64,000 bases of DNA from Clostridium sp. CAG:567 (GTDB lineage: Bacteria > Bacillota > Clostridia > TANB77 > CAG-508). This document shows positions 11,172-53,555 of the stretch, one piece after another. The stretch is taken from the NCBI GenBank assembly GCA_000437855.1, contig FR902170.1, forward strand, positions 28,692 through 92,691, given 5' to 3'. The translations under genes were made by a program, and so were the position numbers. The notes below the pieces were generated by a model. The model was not told the DNA's origin, made no database searches, and saw only the letters and a list, made by a program, of their open reading frames with translations. Within the stretch, counting starts at the first letter, position 1. Every line of letters begins with the position of its first letter.

Positions 11172-11834
11172 ATGAGCGTAAAAATTGACCTAAAAATCTT
11201 TTTATTTGCAATTATATTTTATTTTACTAAACAAATTAAAATATATGCTTTATTGATGATATTAGCATTAGTACATGAATTAGGACACTTAGTGTGTGGA
11301 ATATGTTTGGGACTCAAATTAAAAAGTATAAAAATAACGCCAGTAGGATTTCAAATATTATTTAAAAATAATATACAGGATTATAATATTAAAATACAAA
11401 AAGGTAATGAAATTTGTATAAAAAAAATAGCAATTGCGTTTGCAGGGCCACTGGTTAATATATTTATTGCAATAATTGCTTTTTTTATGCCTGAAAACAT
11501 TGTGGCACAAAAAGAAACAATAATATATGCAAATTTGATGTTGGCAATATTTAATTTATTACCAATATATCCACTAGATGGTGGAAGAATAGTAAAAGAA
11601 ATAATAATGATAAAAGATGGAACAAAATTAGCTTATGAAAAAATAAATAATATATCTAAAGTAACAGTTATAATAATTACAATAATTACGTCTATAATAA
11701 TTTTAAAAATACATAATATAGCAATTTTAATAATATTAACATATTTATGGTATTTAAACATAAAAAATGAAAAGGAATATAAGGTAAAATGTAGAATAAT
11801 AAGTGCAGTAAAAGGAGGTTATGTTGACATATAG
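11172..11834 (+). CDS. M50 site-2 protease, SpoIVFB-like (no CBS domain)
   Basis: HELGH in TM helix 2 and NLLPIYPLDGGRI (NxxPxxxLDG) motifs. Polytopic membrane protein directly after the M23 gene, as in spoIVFA-spoIVFB. Confidence 0.7.
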   Translation: MSVKIDLKIFLFAIIFYFTKQIKIYALLMILALVHELGHLVCGICLGLKLKSIKITPVGFQILFKNNIQDYNIKIQKGNEICIKKIAIAFAGPLVNIFIAIIAFFMPENIVAQKETIIYANLMLAIFNLLPIYPLDGGRIVKEIIMIKDGTKLAYEKINNISKVTVIIITIITSIIILKIHNIAILIILTYLWYLNIKNEKEYKVKCRIISAVKGGYVDI

Positions 11835-13071: not shown

Positions 13072-14019
13072 ATGAAAAAAGAATTTATAGAGTTATATAA
13101 TGAACTAACTAATAAAAAAGATAATGAATTATTGAAAATATGGGAAGATTCAAAAAAAGAAAAAATAAAAAGAAAAATAGTTATATTAGTAGTTCTTATT
13201 ATAGTTGATATATTAGTTGCATTGAGATTTAGTGAGGCAATTCGAAGTGTCAGAGATGTTTTTATAGTAATAGCAACAATACTTTTTTACGACTTAATTA
13301 TAGGAGTGATTGTAAATGCACTTATACAGAGCAAAACAAGAAAATATAATTCAGTATATAAGACAAAAGTAGTCGAAAAGATAATAAAAAACTTTTTTGA
13401 TGAGGTTGATTATATTCCAGAAAAGCCTCTACCTAGCAAAATATATGACGAAGGAAAATATGACGAAAACTATAATAGATATTATTCAGATGATTATGTG
13501 GATGCTAAATTAGACAATAAATATGATTTGAAAATGGCAGAGGTAAAAACAGTTTATGAAACTACGTATACAGATAGCGATGGACACACACATACAGATA
13601 GAGTGACAAGATTTCATGGCTTATTTATTAAAATTAAAATTGACAAGTCAATAAAAAATAATTTAACAATAAAACAAAATGGAACAATTCGAAAAAAAGA
13701 AAGATTAGAAATGGATTCATCAGAATTTGAAAAATATTTTGATGTAAGCTCAAATAATGATATAATTGGAATGCAAATTCTAACACATGATGTTATGGAA
13801 CTTTTATTAGAATATAGAAAGTACCTAAAATGTCCTTTTGATATTTGCATTTATGAAGACATAGTTTATATAAGAATACATTGCGGAACTATGTTTGAAG
13901 CTACAATTAGTTCAAAAGTGCTTATAGATAGAGAAAAGACTGAAGAATATTATAATATGTTAGAATTTATATATAAATTATCAAAAGAAGTAATAAAAAT
14001 GAGTGATGGTGATTACTAA
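13072..14019 (+). CDS. DUF3137-like membrane protein (usual LemA neighbour)
   Basis: Two TM helices followed by a roughly 220 aa domain (FHGLF..I....). Gene order LemA then DUF3137 is common. Confidence 0.5.
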   Translation: MKKEFIELYNELTNKKDNELLKIWEDSKKEKIKRKIVILVVLIIVDILVALRFSEAIRSVRDVFIVIATILFYDLIIGVIVNALIQSKTRKYNSVYKTKVVEKIIKNFFDEVDYIPEKPLPSKIYDEGKYDENYNRYYSDDYVDAKLDNKYDLKMAEVKTVYETTYTDSDGHTHTDRVTRFHGLFIKIKIDKSIKNNLTIKQNGTIRKKERLEMDSSEFEKYFDVSSNNDIIGMQILTHDVMELLLEYRKYLKCPFDICIYEDIVYIRIHCGTMFEATISSKVLIDREKTEEYYNMLEFIYKLSKEVIKMSDGDY

Positions 14020-32313: not shown

Positions 32314-33642
32314 ATGAAAATAAATAGTAAAAAAGGCAAAACAAATTACTTAAATCAAAAAGGTATTACTCTAATAGCATTAGTAGTAACAATAGTTGTT
32401 CTTTTGATTTTAGCGGGGGTAAGTATAAACACTCTATTTGGAGATAATGGAATAATTAAAAAGGCACAAGATGCCCAAAACAGAATGAATAACGCACAAG
32501 AAAGTGATTTAAATGCACTAAATGAATTAGATGAATTTATATATGATGCAACAGGAAAATTACCAAGTACGGAAGATACGACACCATATTATCCAGATGG
32601 AACATTTTCAAAAGTAAGTAGGACAAATTTAAGTAATGGCTTAGTAATACAAGATGCAAATAAAAATGAATATGTATGGATAGAGGTACCAAAAAGCTTG
32701 TATGAAAATAGTAGTTATAATACAAAAACAACAACAGCAGATCAAAAACCGGCAAATTCAGAAGATTATGGTAAAATAGAATATTGCTTACATAAATATA
32801 CAGAAACTTATAGAAATGGTACAAGTTTTTCAGACACATATTATTCAGATGAAATGACAGGATTAACAAAAATAAAATACAATGAACTAAAACAAAAAAT
32901 GTTAAAAAGTGTATATGAAAATGGAGGCTTTTGGATAGGAAGATATGAAGCAGGAATAGCGGGAAATAGAACTTCTGGAAATATAGATTTAGAAACAGCA
33001 CCAGCTCCATTATCAACATCAAAAACAGGAACAGAAGAAAATCCAGTATATCCATATACTTATGTAACATGTAGCCAAGCACAAACACTAGCAAGTAAAT
33101 TATCAACAGGAAAAGGTTATACAAGTAGTTTAATGTTTGGAGTACAATGGGATTTAATCTTAAAACATATAGAAACAAAAGAAGTAAAAAAAGGAACAAC
33201 ATTAGAAACAATACAAAGTGCTCTAAAAGATGATAGCTCATCTTGGGGAAATTACTATAATGCAAGTTTTGAAATAAACAGAGGAAAATATGCCAAGTTT
33301 GGAGCAATAAGTACATGGTATAATTATAATAATGAAAATGGATTAGAAAATTGTGTAACATACGCAAATGGAACAAGTACAAAAGTACAAGCAACTTCGA
33401 AGAGTAGTGCAATATTATTAACAACAGGAGCAAGTGATACATGTAAAAAAATGAATATATATGACTTGGCTGGAAATGTAAGGGAATGGACATTAGAACG
33501 TTACTCTGGACGAACATCTCGTTGCGCTGATCGAGGAGGTTGTTACGCTTCAAGCTCTAGCTATTCAGTTTCTGGCCATACCTACATGGATGATACGTCC
33601 GGCACCCCAAACCTTGGCTTCAGGCTCTCACTTTATAAGTAG
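32314..33642 (+). CDS. Pilin-like N-terminal anchor fused to an FGE-sulfatase/SUMF1-type (C-type-lectin fold) domain, with a composition-shifted C-terminal 44 codons
   Basis: The N-terminus KG-ITLIALVVTIVVLLILAGVSI resembles a prepilin leader plus hydrophobic helix. C-terminal domain blocks are GGFWIGRYE, MFGVQWD, YDLAGNVREWT, RGG....., LGFRL. Confidence 0.75.
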   Translation: MKINSKKGKTNYLNQKGITLIALVVTIVVLLILAGVSINTLFGDNGIIKKAQDAQNRMNNAQESDLNALNELDEFIYDATGKLPSTEDTTPYYPDGTFSKVSRTNLSNGLVIQDANKNEYVWIEVPKSLYENSSYNTKTTTADQKPANSEDYGKIEYCLHKYTETYRNGTSFSDTYYSDEMTGLTKIKYNELKQKMLKSVYENGGFWIGRYEAGIAGNRTSGNIDLETAPAPLSTSKTGTEENPVYPYTYVTCSQAQTLASKLSTGKGYTSSLMFGVQWDLILKHIETKEVKKGTTLETIQSALKDDSSSWGNYYNASFEINRGKYAKFGAISTWYNYNNENGLENCVTYANGTSTKVQATSKSSAILLTTGASDTCKKMNIYDLAGNVREWTLERYSGRTSRCADRGGCYASSSSYSVSGHTYMDDTSGTPNLGFRLSLYK

Positions 33643-33794
33643 CTACTTAAAACTGGATTGATGGACCAGAGAAAGTGAATAAGGTTATGATTTTAGTGCT
33701 AATGTATTTAATACAACTTTAGCTAAAGATAAAACTTATAAAAGGGAAAAATATCAGAATCAAAGTGTATTAAGCAAGAAAATGTAAACAAATA

Positions 33795-33824
33795 AAAACC
33801 TGAAGCCAAGAGGCCTCAGGTTTT
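33795..33824. terminator. Bidirectional terminator overlapping the arginase stop
   Basis: AAAACCTGA (33795-33803) / TCAGGTTTT (33816-33824) with a 12-nt GC-rich loop. Confidence 0.65.
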
Positions 33825-34854
33825 AAAATTTTTCAATCCATTTATTTAAAATATTTGTAGCAATTTCTTTTGTAACATTATTTTTATCAAATAATGGATT
33901 ATATTCAACTAAATCAGCTGATTTAATAATATTACTATACTTTGTAATCTCATCTGCTAAAGCATAAGTTTCTTCTAAATTAATGCCATTTTTAGCTGGA
34001 ATTGAAACACCAGGGGCAACAGTAGGATCTATTAAATCTAAATCAAAACTAATATGTACTCCATCTGTTCCGTTTGAAGCAATAGCAAAAGCTTTTTTAC
34101 AAATTTCTTCAACTCCATATTTTTTAATATCTTCAGTAGAAAATACAGTAACACCTGCATCTAATACATTACCCCATTCCCATGGATCAATATCTCTACC
34201 ACCAACAATAACAGCATTTTTGAAATTGTAAAATGGACCATCATGAAAATCAGCTAATATACTTTTTTCATAATGTGTAGCAACTGCTAGAGGCAAACCG
34301 TGTAAGTTACCAGTAACAGAAGTAGGGTAGGTATTGAAATCAGCATGTGAATCAAACCATATAATTCCCATATTTTTGTTTTCTTTTATAGAACCTAAGC
34401 TTGAACCAATTGCAGTAATATGGTCTCCACCTACAAGTAAAGGAAATTCACCATTTTGAATAACTTTACGAGTTATGTTGTATAACTTTTGATTAAATTC
34501 ATTGATTTCTTCTAAGTTTCTTTTTTCGTTTTTTGAATCTAGCGCTTTAACTGCTAAAACTAAGTTATGCATTTTTGTGTAGTATGCATCCTTTTCTGCA
34601 TTATTCATATTTTCTTCAAAATGAATTTCATGCATTTCTAGTAACAAATCATCAAATTTTGATACAAAACTATTAATATCATTTGAATCGGAATTTGAGT
34701 GAGATTCTTCACTTTTTTTGCTACCTTTCAAAATATAATTTTGAGAAATATTGCTTGGTTTTAAACCTTCTGTTAAGGCTTGTGCCCCAAGCTCAGCACC
34801 ATCAATCTTTAGACCTAAGTCAGTGCATGCACTTATAATTGATATTTTTTTCAT
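33823..34854 (-). CDS. Arginase/ureohydrolase family enzyme with an N-terminal insertion
   Basis: GGDH(I)TAIG, IWFDSHADFNT and HISFDLDLIDP Mn-binding motifs. There is an extra roughly 70-80 aa acidic/helical segment after residue ~45. Confidence 0.8.
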   Translation of the reverse strand: MKKISIISACTDLGLKIDGAELGAQALTEGLKPSNISQNYILKGSKKSEESHSNSDSNDINSFVSKFDDLLLEMHEIHFEENMNNAEKDAYYTKMHNLVLAVKALDSKNEKRNLEEINEFNQKLYNITRKVIQNGEFPLLVGGDHITAIGSSLGSIKENKNMGIIWFDSHADFNTYPTSVTGNLHGLPLAVATHYEKSILADFHDGPFYNFKNAVIVGGRDIDPWEWGNVLDAGVTVFSTEDIKKYGVEEICKKAFAIASNGTDGVHISFDLDLIDPTVAPGVSIPAKNGINLEETYALADEITKYSNIIKSADLVEYNPLFDKNNVTKEIATNILNKWIEKF

Positions 34855-35089
34855 TTTAAACCCTTCTTTAAACTTTCACTAACATGATGATGATAATTAT
34901 CAAACATCAGAAGTATGGCAAAAATTATATCAATAAGCTAAAAAAAAGTCTAGTGTTTTAATAAAAAAGTCCTTCTTTTATGGAAGGATTTTTTATTGTA
35001 TAGGAAAATGTTATATACAAGGGTTAAGTTACACTGAATTGTGTGTATTTGTATAGCAAAATGCACGTATGAAGAAGCAACTATTCATA

Positions 35090-37444
35090 TTATTTAATTT
35101 CAACTACAGTTACTCCCATTTCACCCTCACCAAATGTACCTATACGAAAACTCTTTACATGAGGATTTTTTTTCAAAAATGAATGAATGCCTTCGCGAAG
35201 CTTACCAGTGCCTTTTCCGTGAACAATTCTAACAGGTGAAATGTTTGCAGATGCACAATTGTCTAAATATTTATCAATAACATAAATTGCTTCATCAACA
35301 TTTTGACCAATAACATTTATTTCAGGAGAAACAGTTTTGGCTTTTGATTCTTTATTTGTAGTAACTTTTCCAGATTCTTTAACTTTAACACTATTAGTTA
35401 AACTCTTTCTTAAATCTGAAAGTTTAATATTCATTTTCATGTTGCCAACTTGAACTTGGACCTCATTGGATTTATTAATTTTATTACCAACAATATATCC
35501 ATTTGAACCAAGAGAAGCAATGTAAACATTTAAGCCATCTTTTACATCTGACTCAGCTAATGCTTCAAAACTATTATTTGGCTCAGTATAATGAATAGAA
35601 TTTATAGCTTTTAATTTATCATTTAGTTTATTTCTTAAATTATTTGCCTGTTTTATATCAGAAGAACTATTAAGCTCATGTATAATTTCTGTAGCTTCTT
35701 CTTTAGCGGAAAGCAAAATATCACGTGCTTCTAATTTAGCATCTTCAAGCAATTGTGCTCTTTTTTCTAAAACATCATCTTGTTTTTGTTCTAAACTTTT
35801 TCTTAAAAGCTCAACTTGTCTTAAATTTTTTTCAGTTTCTTCTTTTTGTTTTTCAATTTCTAACTTATTATCATAAATACTTTTTAATAACTCCTCAATT
35901 GGTATTTTATCATCTTTTAAATGACTATTTGCTACATTTAGTATTTGTTCATTTAAACCAAGTCTTTTACTAATAGCAAAAGCATTGCTTTTTCCAGGAA
36001 TACCAACTAATAGCTTATATGTTGGTTTTAGATTTTCTATATCAAATTCAAAACTTGCATTTTCAAATCCATCTGTTATTAATGCATATTCTTTTAATTC
36101 TTGGTAGTGTGTAGTGCAACAAACTATGCTTCCAATATCTTTTAAATAACTTAAAATACTAATTGCAAGTGCAGCACCTTCTAAAGGGTCTGTGCCAGAA
36201 CCCAGTTCATCTAATAAAACCAAACTATTATTATCAGTTATATTAGTAATTTCAACAATATTTTTTATATGTGCAGAAAATGTACTAAGAGATTCTTGTA
36301 TACTCTGCTCATCACCAATATCAGCAAATATATGCGAAAAAACACTTATGCTACTACTTTCACTACAAGGAATAGGAATACCGGAATAAGCCATTAAAAG
36401 TAGTAATCCAACAGTTTTTAAGGCAACAGTTTTTCCACCTGTATTTGGACCAGTAATTAAAAGCGAAACATAGCTTTTACCTAAAGAAATATCTATAGGA
36501 ACAACCTTATCCTTGTCAATTAAAGGATGTTTTGCTTTATATAAATCAATGTATTTGTTATTATTTAAAACAGGAATAATTCCAAAACTGTCAATTCCAA
36601 AATTAGCTTTTGCAAAAATCAAATCAATACTAGCAATAAGAGCTAAATTGTTTTTTAATTGATCAACATATTCATATAATGAAGAAGAAAGTATTTGCAA
36701 AATTCTTTCAATCTCAATATCTTCTTCAATTTTTATATGATTAATTTTATTATTTAGTTCAAATATACTTGTTGGCTCAATATATAAAGTAGAACCACTA
36801 CTAGAAGTATCATGAATAAATCCTTTTATATAACTTCTATATTCTTCTTTAACAGGTATAACATATCTATTATTACGAATTGTAACAATTGGTTCCATTA
36901 TATATTTAGCATAAGTACTAGAATGAATAAATCCATTTAACTTATCTTTAACTTCTTGCTCAAAGTTTTTTCTGTTTCTTCGTAAGCTAGCAAGCTTACT
37001 AGATGCATTATCAGCAACAGTGTTTTCATCAATTATTTTATCAAAAATATTTTTTTCAATAGAAGGGTTTGAATAAAGAAAGCTAAAATATTTTTCTAGA
37101 TATTCAAAAGTAACAGAAGAATCATCATAAAAATATTCTTTTAATTCTCTGCACATTTTTAAAAGCACAGCAAAATTAAGTAATCCTTTTATAGATAAAG
37201 TTTGATTACTTTCTAAAACTTTAATATATTTTTCTAATTCTTCAGTTTCGTAAAATGGTGGAATACCTTTTTGATGTAAAAGGGTATCAGCTTGTTTTGT
37301 TTCGTTAAGCAAAACATCAACTTGTTCATAAGAAAAATTAGGGACTAATTGCTCACACAAATTTTTCCCTAAATAAGTTTTACAATATCCACCTAAATTT
37401 TTTATTATTTCATTATATTCTAATTTATTTAAAATAGCGTCCAT
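35090..37444 (-). CDS. mutS2: Endonuclease MutS2 (MutS-family ATPase with C-terminal Smr domain)
   Basis: Walker A ITGPNTGGKTV, DELGSGTDP, long coiled coil, C-terminal Smr (E.NVIGQNVDEA....DKYLD.........RIVHGKGTG.LR..I..FLK..P.V). Confidence 0.9.
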   Translation of the reverse strand: MDAILNKLEYNEIIKNLGGYCKTYLGKNLCEQLVPNFSYEQVDVLLNETKQADTLLHQKGIPPFYETEELEKYIKVLESNQTLSIKGLLNFAVLLKMCRELKEYFYDDSSVTFEYLEKYFSFLYSNPSIEKNIFDKIIDENTVADNASSKLASLRRNRKNFEQEVKDKLNGFIHSSTYAKYIMEPIVTIRNNRYVIPVKEEYRSYIKGFIHDTSSSGSTLYIEPTSIFELNNKINHIKIEEDIEIERILQILSSSLYEYVDQLKNNLALIASIDLIFAKANFGIDSFGIIPVLNNNKYIDLYKAKHPLIDKDKVVPIDISLGKSYVSLLITGPNTGGKTVALKTVGLLLLMAYSGIPIPCSESSSISVFSHIFADIGDEQSIQESLSTFSAHIKNIVEITNITDNNSLVLLDELGSGTDPLEGAALAISILSYLKDIGSIVCCTTHYQELKEYALITDGFENASFEFDIENLKPTYKLLVGIPGKSNAFAISKRLGLNEQILNVANSHLKDDKIPIEELLKSIYDNKLEIEKQKEETEKNLRQVELLRKSLEQKQDDVLEKRAQLLEDAKLEARDILLSAKEEATEIIHELNSSSDIKQANNLRNKLNDKLKAINSIHYTEPNNSFEALAESDVKDGLNVYIASLGSNGYIVGNKINKSNEVQVQVGNMKMNIKLSDLRKSLTNSVKVKESGKVTTNKESKAKTVSPEINVIGQNVDEAIYVIDKYLDNCASANISPVRIVHGKGTGKLREGIHSFLKKNPHVKSFRIGTFGEGEMGVTVVEIK

Positions 37445-51791: not shown

Positions 51792-53555
51792 ATGAAAACA
51801 AAGAACAAAAGAAATTATTCAAAACAAAATGGCATTACGCTAATTGCACTAGTAGTAACTATTGTAGTATTACTAATACTAGCAGGAGTAAGTATAAATG
51901 CACTATTTGGAAATACAGGAATAATACAAAAAGCAAAAGATGCTCAAAACAAAATGGATCAAGCAACACAAAATGACTTAGACTCAATAAACGGCTTAAA
52001 TGAATGGATAGATGGAAAAATAAATGGCACAACAGGAGAAGAAAGCAAACCTGTAACAAATCCATATGCTGACCAACAATGGACAATGGCATATGTATGC
52101 AATAATGGAACTTGGAGTAATACTCCATTAACTTCAGCAAATGGAGATACAATTCCAGAAGGTACACAAATTGTAGCTAAATTTTATGCTACTGGCGAAA
52201 AAATAACACCACCATCACTAAATGCTAGTAGCAGTAAAACAATACCATTTTCAGAAGGTGAGACGTATAAAGTAGTAATTGAAGGAACAGGAGAAATGGG
52301 AATATTAATAGATGCAACAAGTATTAGTGATATAAAATCAGCAAGTGGTTGGCAAATCCAAACAGTTTCATATTTTGCATGGTTACAAGGTGGAATGCAA
52401 GGTAATGCGGTATCTTGTATAACACCATATATTACAGAATTAACAATATGTGATGGAATAACAAATGTAGGCAATTTTGCTATGGCAGGAGCAACAAGTT
52501 TAAGTAAAGTTACATTAGGTAATAGTCTAAAAACAATAGGAAATTATAGTTTTAGTGGTAATAATGAGCTAAGTGAAATATCAATTCCTGATACAGTAAC
52601 AAGTGTAGGAAAAAATGCATTCAGTAGAGAGTATGGAAATATTACTAGTATAATAGTTCCAAATGAAGCAATTGCAAAGATAGTAAACGGTTCATATCAT
52701 GGAGGAACAGCCAAAGTAGTAATAGCAAATGAAAATAAGATTGCACAAAATACAATAAATGCAGAAGAAGTGGCTAATCATCCAGTAGTATATAGTGGAA
52801 AAGAAGTGACAGGATATACTTGTGATAATAGTGCAGGAGTAAACAAATGGAAAATATATCATTCAGATGGGAAAAATATATATTTAATAGCAGATAATTA
52901 TATAACAGGAAAATATATACCAGCAAAAGATGGAGCAACAATGACCGCAAGTTCAACAACCAATGCATATTATTTTAATGACACCTTATTAAATAAATAT
53001 ACAGGAGCAGTAAGTATAACAGATGCAAATATAACCCCATGGCTAAGTTATTTGAAATCAAGTTATGGTGGAAGTGATAATACAAATAATAAAAATATTA
53101 ATATGAAAGCAACAGCATATTTATTAGATACAGAAATATGGAAAGGATTTAAAAACTCAACAAAAGCAAAATATGCAATAGGAGCACCAACTTTAGATAT
53201 GTTTGTAGCATCATATAACACAAGATTTGCAAAACAAATAGAAACAATAGTGCAAGAAGCAGGATACAAACTAAAATTCACAGATGGAGATTCATATGAA
53301 TATTCTCTAGCTACCTATGATTATTTAACAGCACATCAATATAAAGACAATTATGCAAATCATATGTGGCTTGCCAGTCCGACAGCCCGCAGCAGCGACT
53401 ATTTGGTGGGCGTGAACTGCTACGGTAATGTCTACTACTACTACTACAATGACGTCAGCGGTTGTTTGGGCGTGCGTCCGCTAGTTTGTCTAGAATCTGG
53501 AGTCTCTCTCGAAAAACAAGAAGTAAATGGAGAAATTGTATATAACATAAAATAG
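51792..53555 (+). CDS. Pilin-like N-terminal anchor fused to BspA-type leucine-rich repeats and a C-terminal lectin-like domain with a composition-shifted end
   Basis: The N-terminus NG-ITLIALVVTIVVLLILAGVSI is nearly identical to gene A for about 45 aa. LRR block: I..LTI.DGIT.VG..A..G...L..VTLG.SLKTIG..SF.....L.EISIPD.VT.VG..AF. C-terminus: HMWLASP......YLVGVN..G.V.........GVRPLV.L. Confidence 0.75.
   Translation: MKTKNKRNYSKQNGITLIALVVTIVVLLILAGVSINALFGNTGIIQKAKDAQNKMDQATQNDLDSINGLNEWIDGKINGTTGEESKPVTNPYADQQWTMAYVCNNGTWSNTPLTSANGDTIPEGTQIVAKFYATGEKITPPSLNASSSKTIPFSEGETYKVVIEGTGEMGILIDATSISDIKSASGWQIQTVSYFAWLQGGMQGNAVSCITPYITELTICDGITNVGNFAMAGATSLSKVTLGNSLKTIGNYSFSGNNELSEISIPDTVTSVGKNAFSREYGNITSIIVPNEAIAKIVNGSYHGGTAKVVIANENKIAQNTINAEEVANHPVVYSGKEVTGYTCDNSAGVNKWKIYHSDGKNIYLIADNYITGKYIPAKDGATMTASSTTNAYYFNDTLLNKYTGAVSITDANITPWLSYLKSSYGGSDNTNNKNINMKATAYLLDTEIWKGFKNSTKAKYAIGAPTLDMFVASYNTRFAKQIETIVQEAGYKLKFTDGDSYEYSLATYDYLTAHQYKDNYANHMWLASPTARSSDYLVGVNCYGNVYYYYYNDVSGCLGVRPLVCLESGVSLEKQEVNGEIVYNIK

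Follow-up and report, generated by a model that had tools for sequence, protein, structure and literature searches.

A G+C-rich 3' block in a pilin-like gene of Clostridium sp. CAG:567 is probably a fossil or dormant variable region of a diversity-generating retroelement

We have analysed a 64-kb stretch of contig FR902170.1 from Clostridium sp. CAG:567 (assembly GCA_000437855.1, positions 28,692 to 92,691 of the forward strand), hereafter called the window, in which a gene for a pilin-like surface protein ends in a block of DNA that is poor in adenine and unusually rich in G+C. An earlier reading made from the letters of the window alone (the sequence-only reading) had interpreted this block as the variable region (VR) of a diversity-generating retroelement (DGR), a system in which the 3' end of a target gene is rewritten from a template repeat (TR) by means of a reverse transcriptase (RT). 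In the contigs of the same species the gene always lies between sufC and an arginase gene. The gene, called as an open reading frame (ORF), and the parts of it that matter here are as follows.

32314..33642, + strand: gene for a pilin-like surface protein of 442 aa (ORF call; about 8000 homologues; member of a large DGR-target family).
32353..32421, + strand: prepilin-like segment at the N-terminus (residues 14-36), KGITLIALVVTIVVLLILAGV; sub-threshold match to Pfam N_methyl, E = 8e-4.
33427..33627, + strand: C-terminal FGE-sulfatase-like (C-type-lectin-type) segment, residues 372-438 (Pfam PF03781, E = 6e-4; motifs NIYDLAGNVxEWT, RGG and GFR).
33499..33635, + strand: block homologous to DGR VRs, 51% G+C and 20% A, static in the species (from composition, DNA alignment with the VRs of relatives, the TR/VR pairs of loci L235 and L165, and paralogue L233).
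33613..33635, + strand: conserved 3' end of the block, CTTGGCTTCAGGCTCTCACTTTA, where TR/VR homology ends in relatives.

The block comprises the last 48 codons before the stop, inside the PF03781 match and between the RGG and GFR motifs, a location at the 3' end of the ORF and in the variable loop of a putative C-type-lectin/FGE fold. Its positions 33499-33630 translate to RYSGRTSRCADRGGCYASSSSYSVSGHTYMDDTSGTPNLGFRLS. Within 33501-33630 there are 27 A, 37 C, 29 G and 37 T (G+C 66/130), and 33361-33480 contain 54 A with a G+C of 39/120. Codons ending in C account for 15 of the 44 in 33499-33630 and for 20 of 395 upstream in the gene (Fisher p = 7e-8); CGT or CGA encode four of the five Arg residues of the block, while all seven upstream are AGA or AGG, as the sequence-only reading had stated. 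The hand counts given there for base composition, C-ending codons and Arg codons of the block were all reproduced exactly. Codons ending in A drop from 224/395 upstream to 9/44 in the block, and the A fraction from 0.46 to 0.20. Against the mean G+C of the whole window (27.9%, sd 5.3% in segments of 130 nt), the block stands at z = 4.3, with 0.08% of the segments being as rich, and those reaching at least 48% G+C form two clusters only, 33477-33649 and 53342-53521.

The description of the product as a pilin-like FGE-sulfatase protein rests on sub-threshold Pfam matches, N_methyl scoring 19.3 bits against a cut-off of 21.2, and PF03781 20 bits against a gathering score of 23.3 (profile positions 169-253 of 255). 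Both models also match relatives of the protein, N_methyl in 26 of 40 and PF03781 in 24 of 40 (best E = 4.4e-5), and the N-terminal segment of residues 14-36 is nearly invariant in the family alignment A1. The class III signal peptide motif of type IV pilins and pseudopilins is G/F(M)TLxE; the window protein reads KG|ITLIALVV, with Ala at the site of the canonical Glu+5, and 'pseudopilin PulG' is the name given to one variant in one source. A search of the PDB with the family profile returned no sequence at E <= 0.01, and an AlphaFold model built from a 40-sequence alignment, with a mean predicted local distance difference test score (pLDDT) of 41.7, was too poor for fold comparison.

Searching with the window protein returned 7993 homologues, the best 120 of which are 61-100% identical to it, nearly all over 86-100% of the query. 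In GTDB genomes we found 79 family loci, whose carriers are uncultured gut Clostridia (CAG:508, CAG:245 and Hadza metagenome-assembled genomes, MAGs). Many paralogues occur together, a single genome often holding at least eight, either dispersed or in tandem. The viral contigs searched contained no relatives, and hence the family is not phage-borne in that collection. The C-terminal consensus of the family is EWTLEYTAxTxxPCAxRGGxYxxxGSxxPASxRxxxxTTxSxxxxGFRxSLYK, where the residues found at x are N, Y, S, D, G, C, F, H, T and I, as randomised AAC/AAT codons would be expected to give, and hypervariability across the family falls exactly on the block homologous to 33499-33635. In most paralogues the last 170 nt have 44-55% G+C, compared with 27-31% for the locus or genome. 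The window gene belongs to a pilin-like, FGE-type family of DGR targets of uncultured gut Clostridia. The 3' blocks of the paralogues of genome CAKOTK01 have a common backbone, which suggests that one template may serve many targets. Paralogues are numerous even in small single genomes, at least eight in CAKOTK01 (L149-L158) and at least nine in CAKPKE01 (L163-L195), some of them in tandem, and OV788638.1 (L200/L214/L224) carries at least three in a complete chromosome of 1.55 Mb.

In two relatives, a family member lies beside a full DGR cassette. At L165 the order is a family member, MutS_I (Pfam E = 5.9e-10), bAvd (1.1e-18), an RT (RVT_1, 2.8e-21) that is split by a single frameshift in this MAG, a repeat of the 3' block of the gene, and an SSB-like ORF; the repeat measures 137-145 nt, and 23 of its 28 mismatches with the 3' block fall at an A of the template (p = 4e-7). 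The same order of target, MutS_I, bAvd, RVT_1 and TR is found at L235, between asnS and uvrB, where the target encodes P0020, 69% identical to the window protein. There the TR (13441-13580), compared with the VR (11246-11385) over 140 positions, has 25 mismatches, of which 23 fall at a template A (Fisher 8e-10), and the L235-type targets P0020-P0023 are identical at the 415 positions outside the block but differ at 12-16 of the 48 inside it, a textbook pattern of DGR activity. In the cassettes of L165, L230 and L235 the MutS_I, bAvd, RT and TR are all on one strand. In L165 and L235 the template itself stands at 41-42% G+C although the genome has only about 29%, a consequence of scaffold codons that avoid A, with scaffold Arg encoded by CGA/CGT; the corresponding VRs reach 49-51%. 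Avoidance of A in the template together with A-to-N changes accounts for the whole compositional signature, including the switch of Arg codons. The sequence-only reading had ascribed the jump in G+C to loss of adenines, which holds for the step from 41-42% to 49-51% but falls short as the full cause, the templates being already at 41-42%.

At the DNA level the window block aligns with the 3' blocks of its closest relatives. Seven paralogues from a single genome, together with L010 from another, vary at the first two bases of NNC/NNT codons on an otherwise invariant backbone, and the window block aligns with them. The limits of the block are set by homology on both sides. Over the stretch between the start codon and 33498, paralogue L233 matches the window gene at 89% identity, and from 33499 the two diverge; the 3' end coincides with the point where TR/VR homology stops in L235 and L165, in which the identity runs through the equivalent ...TTCAGG/CGA...TCACT and ends there. 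By analogy with the Bordetella phage model, the conserved end at 33613..33635 may have a role in priming or recognition. The block is thus homologous to VRs whose templates are verified by adenine-specific mismatches (those of L165 and L235), and its origin in a DGR, as originally proposed, is well supported by these alignments; the limits 33499-33630 first given for it proved nearly base-exact. Backbone differences between the window and its relatives include every type of substitution, show no bias from G:C to A:T, and are uninformative on amelioration.

Within the species, the block is static. The exact 442-aa protein occurs in 103 index blocks of the assembly collection and, in contigs from many unrelated human gut samples, occupies one and the same chromosomal site; the block sequence is shared by several hundred contigs from many such samples; the same block is present in all contigs of P0001, P0121 and P0123 (144, 65 and 101, respectively). 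It is identical in P0001-P0006, in P0008 and in most cluster members, P0008 differing at 33 alignment positions (substitutions and inserted residues), none of them in the block and the nearest, R390K, five codons upstream. L228, 99.0% identical over 4.8 kb and about 0.7% diverged, has one change in the block, which is synonymous and in keeping with the background rate. Across the proteins of the species the variants within the block are D427V, T428P, N433H and P432S, all at single positions, and pairs of window-type alleles differ at 12 of 987 positions in the block and at 46 of 8295 outside. Strain variation confined to the block, which the sequence-only reading had proposed to look for, and to adenine-derived codons was not seen among the variants of the species. 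Samples rich in the species include ERZ18533954 and ERZ505191, with contigs at about 31-33x coverage. Such stasis is common in the family; several other lineages differ at up to 12 positions beyond the block, yet at none within it.

The only other allele class of the species is that of L232, whose flanks are 97.5-97.9% identical to the window and whose allele differs over the last ~1 kb of the gene, with third-codon-position differences and codon-length shifts as read by eye, the stretch 33614-33641 being identical. It is an allelic replacement and not a product of adenine mutagenesis.

L232 3347-4876, compared with window 32314-35090: alternative-allele locus, with mutS2 directly downstream and the arginase-family gene (window 33823..34854) absent.

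Our search for a cognate template and RT covered the 64 kb of the window, 10 kb downstream of it, viral contigs, GTDB representative genomes and a metagenome collection. In agreement with the sequence-only reading, the window contains no YxDD-type RT ORF and no template-like copy, the best matches of an A-tolerant sliding scan of both strands being A-rich noise with at least 26 mismatches in 50. The 10 kb downstream encode ftsH, a sortase and a large surface protein, and no RT. Anchored A-tolerant patterns had no match in the viral contigs and none in the GTDB representative genomes, which also lack the species' own allele; in the metagenome collection a two-anchor pattern tolerating any change in the middle retrieved the block itself only, twice, two copies making this a weak test. 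Unanchored A-tolerant IUPAC patterns (C->M, G->R, T->W) were swamped by poly-A at contig ends. The cassettes of L230 and L243 (RTs P0388 and P0288) were discarded as a source, their templates being unrelated to either G+C-rich block of the window. Most contigs with RTs of this lineage measure only 1-8 kb and many cluster members are truncated, which suggests that assemblies break at these cassettes and that metagenome bins will often miss the DGR.

Relatives of the window gene give examples of how a target could lose its cassette. L235 shares its species with L233 and L234, whose flanks are 97-98.5% identical to its own; these two lack the cassette, carrying at the asnS-uvrB locus a different target allele, 78% identical and in opposite orientation to that of L235. 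In a common gut lineage represented by contigs of up to 845 kb (L246-L249, 7596-10664), the cassette has decayed: bAvd is deleted and the MutS-like ORF is fused to the N-terminus of the RT, the RT is cut into pieces of 227 and 107 aa, the TR is deleted, and the adjacent target is frameshifted inside its VR. A second cassette, on the other strand of L249 (3501-6923), is also truncated. Cassette loss in L233/L234 and decay in L246-L249 make a fossil left after loss of the element a concrete possible explanation for the genome of the window.

Taking these data as a whole, the window block is probably a fossil, or at most a dormant, VR of a remote DGR. Of the two states that the sequence-only reading had allowed, active or fossil, the second is the one favoured, since no strain variation beyond background and no TR or RT where searched were found, and current activity is not supported. 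In the mechanism that we propose, the template of a chromosomal cassette like that of the relatives (MutS-like, bAvd, RT, a TR of ~140 nt and a small SSB-like ORF) would be transcribed, the template RNA would be reverse-transcribed with misincorporation opposite adenines, and the cDNA would replace the last ~140 nt of pilin-like FGE-fold genes, leaving ~20 AAC/AAT codons randomised between RGG and GFR. With a template avoiding A in its scaffold codons and A-to-N changes stripping further adenines, the product would be A-poor and rich in NNC/NNT, with CGN codons for Arg and ~50% G+C in a genome of 28%. The window copy would have been written in this way in the past and would now no longer be rewritten; the reason may be that the cognate template or RT was lost or has decayed, as in the related lineage.

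Several observations weigh against this interpretation. Compared without gaps, the block and the L235 template, the closest at hand, have 37 mismatches at positions other than A, and codon-length differences between them are apparent by eye, so that the block is not derivable from that template; the block also deviates at P403, G415, A419 and R422, four scaffold positions that hardly vary across the family. No cognate template was found in the sets searched, and adenine-specific mismatches are not demonstrable for the window block itself. The genome was covered over ~74 kb only, and an RT and a TR could lie elsewhere in it. Concerning stasis, a look-up of the exact protein favours identical copies, and three of the four substitutions in the block (D427V, T428P and N433H) are at adenines, a result that rare DGR activity could also give. 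Finally, the G+C content of the block still equals that of active VRs, which means that the fossil, if it is one, is either young or kept by selection.

Part of these observations could instead be accommodated if the block were a working remote target, with a cassette and a matching template elsewhere in the ~1.3-1.5 Mb genome that fire rarely or under tight control, and with one favoured allele dominant in the sampled humans. There are precedents for both elements of this scenario, since non-phage DGRs with targets over 100 kb away from the RT are on record (Wu et al. 2018, PMC5758913) and some gut DGRs are 'tightly controlled' (bioRxiv 10.1101/2024.11.15.621889); related genomes have eight to nine or more dispersed paralogues with near-identical backbones, implying a shared template, all copies of the block keep ~51% G+C and an intact frame, the three rare variants at adenines are all A-to-N, and several alleles of the window's second VR-like gene exist in the species. 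However, retrohoming rewrites all template adenines at once, whereas the variants seen are single positions, and in L228 the block changes at the background rate. No template was found in the window, the viral contigs, the GTDB representatives or the metagenome collection (the last test being weak, as noted), and none of the best 120 homologues shares the backbone of the block; a template maintained for one static target would be unusual in this family. We therefore regard a working remote target as unlikely, though it is the chief rival reading.

Explanations that dispense with a retroelement fare worse. Acquisition of the 3' end from a G+C-richer donor, by recombination or horizontal transfer, would agree with the fact that the locus recombines (as in L232, where the last ~1 kb is of another allele and the arginase gene is missing) and with the differences of P0008 and P0122 from the window protein in contiguous blocks of residues. 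Dozens of paralogues and orthologues from genomes with 27-31% G+C nevertheless show this jump in G+C at the equivalent site, it coincides with TR/VR homology in L165 and L235, and the templates explain the composition. Moreover, the recombinant allele of L232 has a G+C-rich block of the same kind, so that recombination moves such blocks but does not create them, and a foreign donor is very improbable. Hardly credible is the idea that the composition is a by-product of the amino-acid content of a binding loop rich in Gly, Ser, Tyr, Cys and Arg under ordinary selection. The block is indeed rich in S, G, Y, T and R, but the synonymous choices described above for Arg and for A-ending codons shift too, the codon-level shift persists after conditioning on amino-acid content, and a conserved, non-hypervariable subgroup of the family (L187, L188, L192, L196, L199 and L206) has a comparable loop at an ordinary G+C of 29-35%.

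The second cluster of G+C-rich segments marks the window's only other G+C-rich block.

53364-53483, + strand, inside ORF 51792..53555: second VR-like block, with up to 54% G+C, encoding MWLASPTARSSDYLVGVNCYGNVYYYYYNDVSGCLGVRPL.

This block ends 24 codons before the stop of a second pilin-like gene, one with BspA-type leucine-rich repeats (LRR). Its homologues are hypervariable between WLASP and GVRP, and several alleles are found within the species, namely S534G, a cluster of six changes at 531-537, and, in P0142-P0144, a second half that is not the same. A contig of 1,301,874 bp carries a near-identical variant of the gene, with three substitutions. The block looks like a second DGR-type VR of a different kind, and no template was found for it either in the sets searched. 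A working DGR at a locus not seen here might serve in trans two unrelated kinds of pilin-like target, the FGE-type one (block at 33.5 kb) and the LRR/'GVRP'-type one (53.4 kb), with retrohoming so rare or so controlled that one allele of the first target dominates in human guts and D427V, T428P and N433H are the traces of partial or low-error events; we consider this joint scenario quite improbable.

Other features at or near the gene are of lesser bearing. Past its stop codon there is a conserved stretch with an inverted repeat.

33643..33725, + strand: non-coding stretch 3' of the stop, kept among dispersed paralogues, with a weak inverted repeat at 33653-33669.

Some 80 nt past the stop are conserved across species too, according to DNA alignments of the window with L149-L157, L010 and L234, and the inverted repeat in relatives is CTGGTTCAATGAACCAG. 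It forms a 7-bp stem with a 3-nt loop in L149, L152, L010 and L234 and a stem of only 4 bp in the window, but as a marker of decay it was rejected, because the stem is equally weak in the active target of L235. In L233 a run of 18 N (11391-11408) falls exactly at the site of the inverted repeat of L234, possibly through masking or an assembly gap. Codon 390 (33481-33483, AGG, in GNV-x-EWTLE) encodes K, R, N or S within the species and W, Y, S, D, A, L, C, F and others across the family; it lies five codons upstream of the start of template homology in L235 and L165, and its variability is therefore unexplained by the retroelement. In segment 1-1153 of L229, with a coverage of 1.2 in the contig name, the 3' end of the window gene from 33415 on is preceded by the 5' portion of a distant member of the family, 93% identical to L183; the segment is probably an assembly chimera formed at the conserved LLTTGASD...NIYDLAGNV stretch, real recombination being also possible. 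Further matches to VRs in L172, L173, L198 and L222, considered as templates, proved to be 3' ends of adjacent paralogues. No tRNA was found in the 64 kb of the window.

The type of system is known: MutS-like accessory proteins with avd, remote targets and FGE-type targets are all described by Wu et al. 2018 (PMC5758913), and pilus-associated gut targets are known from Bacteroides. According to the same study, TvpA of the Treponema denticola DGR has its VR in the C-terminal end of an FGE-sulfatase-type C-type-lectin fold, flanked by RGG and GFR-like motifs, as the window protein probably does; a single chromosomal, non-phage cassette serves dispersed paralogous targets, seven of them remote, and the number of elements differs between strains, as in the relatives of the window gene. 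The accessory gene there is HRDC, compared with MutS-like and bAvd in our relatives, whose targets have a type IV pilin-like N-terminus, and the window copy, unlike the Treponema system, has no known TR or RT. The cassettes of L165, L230 and L235 resemble the DGRs of architecture D (MSL, a MutS-like accessory, plus avd), which, following the same source, include the Legionella DGR; the window itself is without cassette genes. A difference from architecture D is an ORF of 79-85 aa that follows the TR in every cassette seen of this DGR lineage, and an SSB-like accessory gene is not mentioned in the sections consulted of that study.

L165 13926-14171, L235 13751-14008, L230 11319-11573, L243 11366-11605 and L246 10413-10664: small ORF after the TR, with a Pfam SSB match in L165 (E = 5e-8) and L243.

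The Bacteroides gut DGRs (bioRxiv 10.1101/2024.11.15.621889) share with our family the human gut as habitat, Avd and Msl, C-terminal VRs on adhesive pilus-type proteins, and the coexistence of very active and quiet elements. They belong to another phylum, however, and diversify type V pilins, instead of proteins with a type IV pilin-like N-terminus, and they travel on integrative and conjugative elements (ICEs), whereas the cassettes described here lie between housekeeping genes (asnS, uvrB) or beside rpsB. The reference system, Mtd/Brt/Avd of Bordetella phage BPP-1, is alike in its adenine-specific mutagenesis, its 3' VR of ~130-140 nt, the nearby template and the AAC-type variable codons; it differs in being phage-borne, with a single adjacent target, and in having a defined initiation of mutagenic homing (IMH) site and a G+C-rich hairpin, while the inverted repeat found here is weak even in an active target.

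The window feature itself involves no new mechanism. Our results indicate that composition alone, that is, an A-poor, NNC-rich 3' block of ~50% G+C in the gene of a surface protein of an AT-rich genome, can flag DGR targets in the absence of a visible retroelement, although this compositional cue alone cannot separate active from frozen targets. In a wider context, the family to which the gene belongs comprises dozens of pilin-like targets per small genome, with cassettes gained and lost within species and decay leaving static targets behind, a setting that bears on the gain, loss and 'freezing' of hypermutation systems in gut Clostridia.

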